From Escherichia phage phiHAO1-1, in the sequence record PP079211.1: a DNA stretch of 40,137 bases; one strand, written 5' to 3'. A program made the translations under genes and the position numbers. Position 1 is the stretch's first letter. Every line of letters starts with the position of its first letter. The notes below the pieces were generated by a model. The model did not search any database. It had not been told where the DNA came from and was given only the letters and a program-made list of their open reading frames with translations. Shown here piece by piece: positions 33,247-36,441 of the stretch.

Positions 33247-36200
33247 ATGTCCACGATTACACAATTCCCTTCAGGAAACACTCAGTACAGGATTGAGTTC
33301 GACTACCTAGCCAGAACGTTTGTTGTTGTTACGCTGGTGAATAGCTCTAACCCTGCCCTGAACCGTGTACTGGAAGTTGGTCGAGATTATCGATTCCTTA
33401 ACCCAACGATGATTGAGATGTTGGTTGACCAATCAGGTTTCGACATAGTTCGTATTCACCGTCAGACTGGAACTGACTTAGTGGTAGACTTCAGGAATGG
33501 CTCAGTGTTGACAGCTAGCGACCTGACCAATTCAGAGCTTCAGGCTATCCATATTGCAGAAGAAGGTCGAGACCAAACGGTTGACTTAGCGAAGGAATAT
33601 GCCGATGCTGCTGGTAGCTCTGCTGGCAACGCTAAGGATAGCGAGGACGAAGCACGACGAATCGCTGAGAGTATCAGGGAAGCTGGTAGACTTGGCTATA
33701 TAACCCGTCGCTCCTTCGAGAAAGGCTACAACATTACAACATGGAGCGAGGTACTGCTATGGGAAGAGGATGGTGATTATTATCGCTGGGATGGTACGCT
33801 TCCAAAGAACGTTCCTGCTGGTTCAACTCCTGAAACTTCCGGTGGGATTGGATTAGGTGCGTGGGTTAGTGTCGGTGATGCTGCTTTAAGAAGTCAGATT
33901 ACAAATCCTGAAGGGGCAATACTCTACCCTGAATTACATAGAGCACGCTGGCTTGATGAAAGAGATGTTCGTGGTTGGGGTGCTAAAGGGGATGGTGTCA
34001 CTGATGATACAGCAGCGTTAGCGAGAGCATTAAACGACACACCGGTTGGACAAAAGCTTAATGGCAATGGGAAGACATATAAGGTCACATCCCTGCCTGA
34101 CATTAGTCGCTTCATCAACACTCGTTTCGTTTATGAGCGCATTCCCGGACAACCTCTTTATTATGTCTCTGAAGAATTTGTTCAGGGTGAGCTGTTCAAA
34201 ATAACGGACACCCCTTATTACAATGCGTGGCCTCAGGATAAAGCGTTCGTATATGAGAATGTGATATATGCACCTTACATGGGTAGCGATCGTCATGGTG
34301 TTAGTCGTCTGCATGTATCATGGGTTAAGTCTGGTGATGATGGTCAAACATGGTCTACTCCAGAGTGGTTAACTGATCTGCATCCAGATTACCCTACAGT
34401 GAACTATCATTGTATGAGTATGGGTGTATGTCGCAACCGTCTGTTTGCCATGATTGAAACACGTACTTTAGCCAAGAACGCATTAACCAATTGTGCATTG
34501 TGGGATCGCCCCATGTCTCGTAGCCTGCATCTTACTGGCGGTATCACTAAAGCTGCAAATCAGCCATATGCAACAATACATGTACCAGACCACGGACTAT
34601 TCGTGGGTGATTTTGTTAACTTCTCTAACTCTGCGGTAACAGGTGTATCCGGCGATATGACCGTTGCAACCGTAATAGATAAGGACAACTTCACGGTCCT
34701 TACACCAAACCAGCAGACTTCAGATTTGAATAACGCTGGAAAGAATTGGCACATGGGTACTTCTTTCCATAAGTCTCCATGGCGTAAGACAGATCTTGGT
34801 CTAATCCCTCGTGTCACAGAGGTGCATAGCTTTGCTACTATTGATAATAATGGCTTTGTTATGGGCTATCATCAAGGTGATGTAGCTCCACGAGAAGTTG
34901 GGCTTTTCTACTTCCCTGATGCTTTCAATAGCCCATCTAATTATGTTCGTCGTCAGATACCATCTGAGTATGAACCAGATGCGGCAGAGCCGTGCATCAA
35001 GTACTATGACGGTGTATTATACCTTATCACTCGTGGCACTCGTGGGGATAGACTAGGTAGCTCTTTGCATCGTAGTAGAGACATAGGTCAGACTTGGGAG
35101 TCACTGAGATTTCCATATAATGTTCATCATACTACATTACCTTTTGCTAAAGTAGGGGATGACCTTATTATGTTTGGTTCAGAACGTGCAGAAAATGAAT
35201 GGGAAGCAGGTGCACCAGATGATCGTTACAAGGCATCTTATCCTCGCACCTTCTATGCACGCTTGAATGTAAACAATTGGAATGCAGATGATATTGAATG
35301 GGTTAACATCACTGACCAGATTTATCAGGGCGGAATAGTTAACTCAGGTGTAGGCGTTGGTTCGGTAGTTGTGAAGGATAATTACATCTACTACATGTTT
35401 GGTGGAGAGGACCATTTTAACCCATGGACATATGGAGATAACTCAGCGAAGGATCCATTCAAATCAAATGGTCATCCCTCAGATTTGTATTGCTACAAAA
35501 TGAAGATTGGCCCAGACAATCGTGTTTCTAGGGATTTCAGGTATGGTGCTGTACCTAACAGAGCTGTTCCCGTGTTTTTTGATACGAATGGGATTCGCAC
35601 TGTTCCTGCGCCAATGGAATTTACAGGGGATTTGGGTTTAGGTCATGTGACCATTAGAGCCAGCACCAGTAGTAACATTCGCTCTGAAGTTTTAATGGAA
35701 GGTGAATATGGGTTTATCGGGAAATCTATACCGACTGATAACCCGGCAGGGCAGCGCCTCATATTTTGCGGGGGTGAAGGCACCAGTTCAACGACTGGCG
35801 CACAGATTACGCTTTATGGTGTAAATAACACCGACTCAAAGCGAATAGTTTACAATGGTGCTGAGCATCTATTCCAAAGTGCTGATGTTAAGCCTTATAA
35901 CGATAACGTCACTGCGCTTGGTGGACCTAGCAACCGTTTCGCCACTGCATACCTCGGAAGTAACCCTATTGTTACTTCTAACGGGGAGAAGAAAACAGAG
36001 CCAGTAGTTTTTGATGATGCTTTCCTTGATGCTTGGGGTGACGTTCGCTACATCATGTACCAGTGGTTAGATGCTGTTCAACTGAAAGGCAATGATGCTC
36101 GTATTCACTTCGGGGTTATTGCTCAGCAAATTCGTGATGTATTCATTGCACATGGTCTGATGGACGAAAACAGTACGAATTGTCGTTATGCTGTTCTGTG

Positions 36201-36441
36201 CTATGACAAGTATCCACGGATGACCGATACGGTATTTTCGCACAATGAAATCATTGAACACATTGACGAGGAGGGTAATGTCACCACTACGGAAGAACCT
36301 GTATACACCGAGGTGGTTATTCACGAAGAAGGTGAGGAGTGGGGTGTTCGGCCTGACGGAATTTTCTTTGCTGAAGCCGCTTATCAGAGAAGAAAACTGG
36401 AAAGAATCGAAGCCAGACTTTCTGCTCTTGAACAGAAGTAA
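33247..36441 (+). CDS. Tail fibre/tailspike endosialidase (T7 gp17 N-terminal adaptor + sialidase beta-propeller + C-terminal chaperone domain)
   Basis: 1064 aa; N-terminal about 150 aa resembles T7 gp17 (FDYLAR.FVVVTL); GAKGDGVTDDTAALARAL pectate-lyase-type motif; Asp-boxes SGDDGQTW and SRDIGQTW; candidate Ser911/Lys916 dyad in TSNGEKK; length equals what I recall for K1F endoNF. Confidence 0.9.
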   Translation: MSTITQFPSGNTQYRIEFDYLARTFVVVTLVNSSNPALNRVLEVGRDYRFLNPTMIEMLVDQSGFDIVRIHRQTGTDLVVDFRNGSVLTASDLTNSELQAIHIAEEGRDQTVDLAKEYADAAGSSAGNAKDSEDEARRIAESIREAGRLGYITRRSFEKGYNITTWSEVLLWEEDGDYYRWDGTLPKNVPAGSTPETSGGIGLGAWVSVGDAALRSQITNPEGAILYPELHRARWLDERDVRGWGAKGDGVTDDTAALARALNDTPVGQKLNGNGKTYKVTSLPDISRFINTRFVYERIPGQPLYYVSEEFVQGELFKITDTPYYNAWPQDKAFVYENVIYAPYMGSDRHGVSRLHVSWVKSGDDGQTWSTPEWLTDLHPDYPTVNYHCMSMGVCRNRLFAMIETRTLAKNALTNCALWDRPMSRSLHLTGGITKAANQPYATIHVPDHGLFVGDFVNFSNSAVTGVSGDMTVATVIDKDNFTVLTPNQQTSDLNNAGKNWHMGTSFHKSPWRKTDLGLIPRVTEVHSFATIDNNGFVMGYHQGDVAPREVGLFYFPDAFNSPSNYVRRQIPSEYEPDAAEPCIKYYDGVLYLITRGTRGDRLGSSLHRSRDIGQTWESLRFPYNVHHTTLPFAKVGDDLIMFGSERAENEWEAGAPDDRYKASYPRTFYARLNVNNWNADDIEWVNITDQIYQGGIVNSGVGVGSVVVKDNYIYYMFGGEDHFNPWTYGDNSAKDPFKSNGHPSDLYCYKMKIGPDNRVSRDFRYGAVPNRAVPVFFDTNGIRTVPAPMEFTGDLGLGHVTIRASTSSNIRSEVLMEGEYGFIGKSIPTDNPAGQRLIFCGGEGTSSTTGAQITLYGVNNTDSKRIVYNGAEHLFQSADVKPYNDNVTALGGPSNRFATAYLGSNPIVTSNGEKKTEPVVFDDAFLDAWGDVRYIMYQWLDAVQLKGNDARIHFGVIAQQIRDVFIAHGLMDENSTNCRYAVLCYDKYPRMTDTVFSHNEIIEHIDEEGNVTTTEEPVYTEVVIHEEGEEWGVRPDGIFFAEAAYQRRKLERIEARLSALEQK

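Follow-up and report, generated by a model that had tools for sequence, protein, structure and literature searches.

Gene 17 of the K1F-like coliphage phiHAO1-1 encodes a predicted endosialidase tailspike closely related to endoNF

Gene 17 and its surroundings

The window analysed here is the whole 40,137-nucleotide stretch of Escherichia phage phiHAO1-1 (PP079211.1), which by its sequence is a Kayfunavirus genome (K1F-like, T7-type, Studiervirinae). It is collinear with the genomes of K1F and its relatives, at 96-99.5% identity over positions 25001-40137 and 92-97% over positions 1-25000. Gene 17 lies between gene 16 and gene 17.5, as it does in K1F, and in the window sequence it reads from an ATG start to a stop codon at its end without interruption. 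The gene and the signals preceding it are as follows.

33180..33199, plus strand: phage RNA-polymerase promoter of gene 17, with a recurrent core motif
33237..33242, plus strand: Shine-Dalgarno sequence AGGAGG, seen in the sequence 4 nt before the gene 17 ATG
33247..36441 (stop codon counted), plus strand: gene 17 precursor, 1064 aa, 119.1 kDa, predicted endosialidase tailspike

The promoter core ACTATCACTATAGG (33183-33196) overlaps the gene 16 stop codon and stands 51 nt before gene 17. This core motif occurs ten times in the window, always on the plus strand, against a chance expectation of 0.02, and K1F and phiHAO2-2 have an identical motif at the equivalent site upstream of gene 17. By analogy with T7 promoters, transcription would start at about position 33195. 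Downstream of the gene, a scan of 36442-36574 found no intrinsic terminator, and the intergenic RNA did not fold better than shuffled sequence (z = -0.83). Three embedded or antisense open reading frames, at 36067..36462 (minus strand), 36245..36478 (plus strand) and 34030..34314 (minus strand), gave no Pfam match and were treated as chance reading frames. An exact-sequence search of a collection of 15 billion proteins did not return the gene 17 protein of phiHAO1-1.

Domain architecture of the tailspike

The following features can be placed along the protein.

33247..33636, plus strand: T7 gp17-like N-terminal domain, aa 1-130 (PF03906 and a T7 gp17 structure match)
33688..33981, plus strand: second N-terminal module of the Tail_spike_N / TSP1-Gp66 type, aa 148-245 (PF18668 and PDB matches)
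33982..34182, plus strand: endosialidase N-terminal extension, aa 246-312 (PF12218, 127 bits)
34183..35508, plus strand: six-bladed beta-propeller catalytic domain, aa 313-754 (PF12217, 731 bits)
34516-34764, plus strand: lectin-like beta-barrel inserted in the beta-propeller, aa 424-506 (PF12195, 159 bits)
35509..35976, plus strand: stalk (triple beta-helix / beta-prism), aa 755-910 (PF12219, 264 bits)
35974..35994, plus strand: putative self-cleavage centre T910/S911-N912-G-E-K-K916, with these residues present
35977..36438, plus strand: C-terminal intramolecular chaperone domain (Peptidase S74), aa 911-1064 (PF13884)

The matches to End_N_terminal, End_beta_propel, End_beta_barrel, End_tail_spike, Peptidase_S74, Phage_T7_tail and Tail_spike_N all lie above their gathering thresholds, which for the endosialidase set (PF12218, PF12217, PF12195 and PF12219) are 24-35 bits. 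The protein also matches PHROG 1171, 'tail spike protein', with 1020 bits. The original prediction had labelled it a tail fibre; since it is an enzymatic trimer, tailspike is the correct term.

At the N-terminus, Phage_T7_tail covers aa 10-115 (57.9 bits against a cut-off of 25.2), and the structure of the T7 gp17 N-terminus (PDB 7boz) matches aa 6-116 with E-values of about 1e-15 to 7e-17. A T7 gp17-like adaptor of about 150 residues had been proposed, which agrees with this similarity and with the point, at about aa 150-180, from which the endosialidases of phages IME207 and YX22 can be aligned. By analogy with T7, this domain would serve as the trimer's anchor in the tail, at the interface of gp11 and gp12. 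Reading frames for the adaptor gp11 (22717..23283) and the nozzle gp12 (23520..25877) are present in the genome, collinear with those of the phiHAO2-2 tail tubular proteins A and B. The second module is of a kind common to tailspikes of other phage lineages; it matches PF18668 over aa 155-211 (70 bits), with further PDB matches to 4oj5, 5w6h, 6nw9 and 9occ. Because this is a separate module, the non-catalytic N-terminus comes to about 245 residues in total.

The catalytic part starts with the extension at aa 246-312, which is where the crystallised catalytic fragments in PDB 1v0e and 3gvl begin. With phmmer, these two endoNF chains match aa 245-910 at E = 0. Together with the 731 bits of End_beta_propel against a cut-off of 24, this excludes a chance match. 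The motifs on which the endosialidase assignment had been founded were all recovered: GAKGDGVTDDTAALARAL at aa 245-262 (nt 33979-34032), and two Asp-boxes, SGDDGQTW at aa 362-369 (nt 34330-34353) and SRDIGQTW at aa 610-617 (nt 35074-35097). The pattern S-x-D-x-G-x-x-W has no further match in the protein. Both Asp-boxes fall in the beta-propeller, as do the catalytic residues H350, R549, E581, R596 and R647. The roles of the catalytic and binding residues have been described before (PMC13564897; PMC2955717). These five, as well as Q330, K585 and N699, and R812, Y821, R866, D994, S911 and K916 further along the chain, are identical in phiHAO1-1 and 12 other endosialidases. The spike is predicted to cleave alpha-2,8-polysialic acid endolytically.

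The stalk retains R812 and Y821 of the third polysialic-acid binding site as well as R866 and R897, which contact the chaperone domain; both functions have been reported (PMC13564897, PMC8326128). Across its boundary with the chaperone domain lies the string TSNGEKK (aa 910-916, nt 35974-35994), with Ser 911 and Lys 916 five residues apart, as had been noted. In endoNF the scissile bond is T910-S911 (mat_peptide features of GenBank AM084414; PMC3828593), with S911 as the nucleophile and K916 as the general base of the dyad (PMC8326128). The dyad, T910, N912 and R897 of the stalk are all present in phiHAO1-1. Cleavage directly N-terminal of S911 would release the fragment S911-K1064, of 154 residues and 17.9 kDa. 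The length of 153 residues given earlier has to be corrected by one, and only 148 residues follow the TSNGEKK string itself.

Within the chaperone domain, PF13884 matches aa 914-971 (37.8 bits against a cut-off of 22), and PDB 3gw6 matches the stalk and chaperone over aa 790-1064 with E = 3.5e-181. HFGVIAQQ is found at aa 953-960 and includes the GVIAQ trimerisation motif (aa 955-959; PMC3742440), and the residues of the R866-D994 contact (PMC13564897) are both conserved. Comparisons of sequence, domains and solved structures agree with the original prediction that the C-terminal chaperone cleaves itself off through a Ser911/Lys916 dyad. The phiHAO1-1 spike, too, probably releases its C-terminal fragment.

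Comparison with related proteins

The closest characterised relative is K1F gp17, or endoNF (CAJ29390; PDB 1V0E, 3GVL, 3GW6), with 1033 of 1064 residues identical (97%) in a gapless alignment. The precursor has the same 1064 residues, as had been stated for endoNF, and the alignment, the crystal-chain matches and the endosialidase Pfam domains all bear out the proposed enzyme identity. We take endoNF to belong to CAZy family GH58 and MEROPS family S74. Domain order and the catalytic, binding and self-cleavage residues are alike in the two proteins. The two genes differ by 45 synonymous and 31 non-synonymous codon changes, with neither frameshifts nor stops. The 31 substitutions spare every residue for which an essential role has been reported, most of them also occur in other isolated plaque-forming phages, and their densest stretch is aa 131-312, which holds 12. 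S580A adjoins the catalytic E581 and is found in four other phages as well. R440P lies in the beta-barrel and D741N beside G742, a host-discrimination position, and both are common to phiHAO2-2. I838L, A859V and R865K fall in the 'tuning knob' of the stalk.

Still closer is gp42 of phiHAO2-2 (XAI67864, PP079212), annotated as 'tail spike protein, endo-N-acetylneuraminidase', which is identical at 1060 of 1064 residues (99.6%; 99.8% for the gene at the nucleotide level). The four differences (T37A, K239R, H624Y and T899A) are absent from all 12 endosialidases in the comparison, and T899A is two residues from the self-cleavage helper R897. The right 15 kb of the two genomes are 99.5% identical, whereas on the left the early genes and a 75-aa reading frame between genes 11 and 12 differ. 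A literature search for phiHAO2-2 found no mention of it. In terms of structure, crystal structures about 98% identical to the phiHAO1-1 protein span aa 245-1064; for aa 1-250 there is 9vvr_A, a solved chain of nearly the same sequence.

The comparison with more distant phages shows that anchor and enzyme can be combined differently. The endosialidases of Shuimuvirus IME207 (ANW46772) and the Ackermannviridae phage YX22 (WPH64569) have the catalytic part and the chaperone in common with phiHAO1-1. Their alignment starts at about aa 150-180, with 89.5% and 77% identity over aligned residues, respectively. All key residues are kept in both, save that K410 is Ser in YX22. Their N-terminal anchors, however, are unrelated to that of phiHAO1-1 and fit other tail types, which shows the endosialidase cassette to be mobile among phage lineages. 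The reverse is seen in PDB 9vvr_A, an 843-aa 'Tail spike protein' that is almost identical from aa 1 to about 250 (T7-like anchor and Tail_spike_N; 548 bits), but departs just after GWGAKGDGVTD into another receptor-degrading domain. A more distant homologue is PDB 4hiz, 'Endosialidase', whose catalytic fragment aligns with aa 246-908 (E = 1.9e-236) and which we take to be endoN92 of phage phi92. The phi92 endosialidase comes from a myovirus, and its attachment to the virion is unlike that in phiHAO1-1.

Outside phage endosialidases, the bacterial exosialidases (GH33) resemble the phiHAO1-1 spike in having a six-bladed beta-propeller with Asp-boxes. EndoNF is said to have neither the nucleophilic Tyr nor a complete Arg triad, and reportedly acts endolytically on alpha-2,8 polymers with inversion of configuration. 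The auto-cleavage domain of eukaryotic MYRF and MrfA is homologous to the chaperone, with an equivalent Ser-Lys dyad and GVIAQ (PMC3742440, PMC8326128, PMC3828593). In this eukaryotic domain the long 'tentacle' reaching to the stalk is absent, and cleavage is independent of stalk residues (PMC8326128).

Discussion

We conclude that gene 17 of this K1F-like coliphage is almost certainly (with a probability of roughly 97%) an endosialidase tailspike and an allele of endoNF, and we found nothing that contradicts this. Enzymatic activity, self-cleavage and host specificity are all inferred from its near-identity to the characterised K1F protein. The spike would work as follows. Once the stalk has folded, S911, activated by K916 and aided by R897, would attack the T910-S911 bond. 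This would free the 17.9-kDa chaperone (aa 911-1064) and leave a kinetically stable mature trimer of aa 2-910, in which each chain has about 101 kDa. Where gp11 and gp12 meet, this trimer would plug into the tail with its T7 gp17-like N-terminus (aa 1 to about 130). Alpha-2,8-polysialic acid would be bound by the beta-barrel and stalk sites and cut endolytically in the active site of the beta-propeller (E581, R596 and R647, with H350 and R549). By such cleavage the virion would digest a path through the K1 capsule and so reach the cell surface.

How strictly such a spike limits the host range is a further question, as the original prediction was of a phage confined to K1 E. coli. Most relatives with a full-length match indeed have isolation hosts that are recorded as K1 (O18ac:K1:H7; K1 LU_100) or that belong to known K1 strains (DSM 30083, UTI89 and APEC IMT5155). 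An alternative, which we consider possible but rather doubtful, is that the phage needs the endosialidase to penetrate the K1 capsule but is not limited to K1 strains by this enzyme alone, and that capsule-less E. coli can be infected at low efficiency. In favour of this, K1F is reported to form plaques on capsule-less MG1655 that are similar in number, though smaller, with growth in liquid culture possible on EV36 only (PMC8234382). The closely related phage vB_EcoP_LNA3, with a tailspike 97.5% identical, has E. coli K-12 MG1655 as its GenBank host, in a record marked UNVERIFIED. Against it, kpsE or neuC carried an insertion in K1F-resistant mutants of EV36, and sensitivity came back when kpsE was restored (PMC9241782). 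Neither K5 E. coli nor Klebsiella K1/K2 was infected by a library of K1F single mutants (PMC13564897). The K1 host range is therefore well supported for K1F, but the small plaques on MG1655 and the host given for LNA3 argue against an absolute restriction.

The substitutions raise the question whether the allele differs in function from that of K1F. We think it improbable that the lineage-specific substitutions are non-neutral and tune either the range of K1 strains that the phage infects, such as those with an O-acetylated capsule, or the kinetics of spike maturation. Under that reading D741N, R440P, I838L, A859V, R865K and the unique T899A may be the candidates, and phiHAO1-1 would add a naturally occurring variant to the map of host discrimination in the K1F tailspike. 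It is extremely unlikely that this endoNF allele has degenerated or been re-targeted, with a spike that binds polysialic acid without cutting it or has shifted to another polysaccharide: the one point in favour is the 31 differences from K1F, S580A, R440P and D741N among them, but every catalytic and binding residue is intact, the four other phages with S580A were isolated as plaque-formers, phiHAO2-2 with R440P and D741N was isolated on E. coli, and in the K1F mutational scan single substitutions did not reprogramme capsule specificity (PMC13564897).

As an endoNF allele, the gene 17 endosialidase is already known and an ordinary finding. It holds nothing biologically new: publications on a protein that is 97% identical cover the enzyme, the structure, the self-cleaving chaperone and a full mutational scan. 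Its value is that gene 17 marks phiHAO1-1 as a phage that targets the K1 capsule, which helps annotation and host-range prediction and can be used in the choice of phages or depolymerases against E. coli K1 of neonatal meningitis and urinary-tract infection.

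Identity of the tailspike

Gene 17 occupies a single long ORF of the window. We located its domains and all the motifs quoted in the original prediction by Pfam and by script in the translation, respectively, and every quoted string was found where it had been described.

Features of gene 17 (aa numbering of its product)
33247..36441 (+), ORF with ATG start, 1064 aa
aa 10-115, Phage_T7_tail (Pfam)
aa 155-211, Tail_spike_N (Pfam)
aa 245-262, GAKGDGVTDDTAALARAL
aa 246-312, End_N_terminal (Pfam, endosialidase domain)
aa 313-754, End_beta_propel (Pfam, endosialidase domain)
aa 362-369, Asp-box SGDDGQTW
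aa 424-506, End_beta_barrel (Pfam, endosialidase domain)
aa 610-617, Asp-box SRDIGQTW
aa 757-910, End_tail_spike (Pfam, endosialidase domain)
aa 910-916, TSNGEKK, containing Ser911 and Lys916
aa 914-971, Peptidase_S74, 'chaperone of endosialidase' (Pfam)

Sequence comparison identifies the gene 17 product as a K1F-type endosialidase tailspike, a protein already known in detail. It is identical to K1F gp17 (endoNF) at 1033 of 1064 aa, without a gap and at the equal length stated in the original prediction. In a phmmer search against all PDB chains, the endoNF catalytic fragment (3gvl, 1v0e) matched aa 245-910 with E = 0, the stalk-plus-chaperone construct 3gw6 matched aa 790-1064 (E = 3.5e-181), and a second endosialidase, 4hiz, was also hit (E = 1.9e-236). 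All seven Pfam families exceed their curated cut-offs, and the pattern S-x-D-x-G-x-x-W matches only the two Asp-boxes. The proposed endosialidase identity is thus supported.

Megablast against 50,697 phage records found 29 that cover at least 80% of gene 17, with phiHAO2-2 as the top match (99.8%) and K1F at 97.6%. The phiHAO2-2 protein gp42, annotated as 'tail spike protein, endo-N-acetylneuraminidase', shares 1060 of the 1064 aa. An exact look-up of the gene 17 product in a collection of 15 billion proteins gave no identical sequence, so the product is no more than a new allele of a protein already described.

Conservation of functional residues

Residue roles were taken from a deep mutational scan of the K1F tailspike published in 2026 (PMC13564897). 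The scan describes H350, R549, E581, R596 and R647 as catalytic or substrate-binding and highly intolerant, Q330, K585 and N699 as further essential core residues, R812 and Y821 as stalk residues contacting polysialic acid, and R866-D994 as a conserved contact between stalk and chaperone; E581, R596 and R647 form the active-site triad (PMC2955717). All twelve are unchanged in the window. We fetched ten more homologues for an alignment of 13 endosialidases, including those of IME207 (Shuimuvirus) and YX22 (Ackermannviridae), phages of unrelated lineages. The residues named by the scan are invariant in 13/13 except K410, replaced by N or S in three phages and dispensable during infection (PMC13564897).

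Gene 17 differs from K1F at 77 nucleotides, which change 45 codons synonymously and 31 non-synonymously and leave the frame intact. None of the 31 substitutions hits a reported essential residue, and the majority are common to other isolated phages in the alignment. S580A, which adjoins E581, is found in four other phages; R440P in the beta-barrel, and D741N, which adjoins the host-discrimination position G742 of the scan (PMC13564897), are common to the window and phiHAO2-2. Only T37A, K239R, H624Y and T899A occur in 0/12 compared sequences. T899A (codon 899, 35941-35943) lies two residues from R897, a stalk residue reported to assist self-cleavage (PMC8326128). That the few substitutions specific to this lineage tune how K1 strains are told apart seems improbable.

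In K1F (GenBank AM084414) the mature gp17* is annotated at aa 2-910 and the chaperone domain at aa 911-1064. Cleavage occurs directly N-terminal of S911, K916 is the general base, and T910 is hydrogen-bonded to N912 (PMC3828593). The S911/K916 dyad was confirmed in a study that also gives R897 a key role (PMC8326128), and GVIAQ is a conserved trimerisation motif (PMC3742440). R897, T910, S911, N912, K916 and GVIAQ are all in the window, so that both residues of the suggested dyad are present and the predicted released fragment is 154 aa and 17.9 kDa. The original estimate of 153 aa was therefore off by one, while its mass of about 17 kDa essentially holds.

Modularity of the N-terminus

The solved T7 gp17 N-terminal domain is similar to aa 6-116. 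A short Ala/Glu-rich linker follows, and then a Tail_spike_N module at aa 148-245 that is also present in solved tailspikes from other phages (4oj5, 5w6h, 6nw9, 9occ). Module borders are defined by two types of natural chimera. In IME207 and YX22 the shared endosialidase part starts only at about aa 150-180, behind unrelated N-termini. The 843-aa tail spike 9vvr_A shows near-identity from aa 1 up to about aa 250 (33247-34000) and then continues as a different enzyme. These borders make the suggested T7-like adaptor of about 150 aa reasonable, but the whole non-catalytic N-terminus is about 245 aa and consists of two modules. The tailspike is visibly modular, the anchor being found with another enzyme and the enzyme with other anchors; the modules meet near aa 150-180 and aa 250.

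Genome context

Judged by nucleotide identity, the entire window is a K1F-like Kayfunavirus genome. Over the right 15 kb, identity reaches 99.5% with phiHAO2-2 and 96.1% with K1F; the left 25 kb aligns to phiHAO2-2 at 97.4% identity over 92% of its length. The order around the spike is that of K1F: gene 16, 17, 17.5 (holin), 18, 18.5 and 19. The phage-promoter core ACTATCACTATAGG has ten copies, all on the plus strand and two with one mismatch, against a chance expectation of 0.02.

Copies of the promoter core (+)
2600, 5667, 7701, 8681, 17463, 20283, 21263, 25907, 33183, 39440

The copy at 33183-33196 overlaps the gene 16 stop codon, 51 nt 5' of the gene 17 ATG, and lies at the same place in K1F and phiHAO2-2. 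A ribosome-binding site, AGGAGG, is found 4 nt 5' of this ATG. A search for a terminator-like element 3' of gene 17 found none.

Three further features were observed outside the spike gene. Tail genes 11 (22717..23283) and 12 (23520..25877) flank a 75-aa ORF (23283-23510, +) that the closest relative, phiHAO2-2, lacks but 148 phage records contain; it matches PHROG 986 'RNA-binding protein' (E = 1e-34) and is a presence/absence polymorphism within the tail gene block. The early segments 1106-2418 and 5935-7619 are unaligned or 78-89% identical to phiHAO2-2, compared with 98-99.5% for the remainder of the genome, and are probably a mosaic early-gene cassette. A 115-aa ORF within them (1538..1885) has a single, weak match (PHROG 151, E = 8e-4), and further ORFs there fall into PHROGs of unknown function. 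Finally, a 52-nt direct repeat, 87% identical and with a hairpin-forming core, occurs at 5682-5733, after the promoter following gene 1, and at 37033-37084, between genes 18 and 18.5. From position only, we take these copies as counterparts of the T7 RNase III sites R1.1 and R18.5.

Host range

The original prediction had also restricted the host range to K1 strains. Relatives with full-length matches were mostly isolated on K1 hosts, either recorded as such (O18ac:K1:H7; K1 LU_100) or belonging to the K1 strains DSM 30083, UTI89 and APEC IMT5155. Capsule dependence is documented for K1F: in resistant EV36 mutants the insertions map to kpsE or neuC, and kpsE reversion brings sensitivity back (PMC9241782). 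K5 E. coli and Klebsiella K1/K2 were not infected by a K1F single-mutant library (PMC13564897). Another lytic K1 phage, vB_EcoM_SHAK7163, kills less well when NeuO has O-acetylated the capsule (PMC13001214). On the other hand, K1F is reported to plate on capsule-less MG1655 with a similar plaque count, although its plaques there are small (PMC8234382), and the unverified record of vB_EcoP_LNA3 lists MG1655 as host. On this evidence, K1 restriction is neither demonstrated nor absolute, but it is a good first approximation to the host range of this phage.
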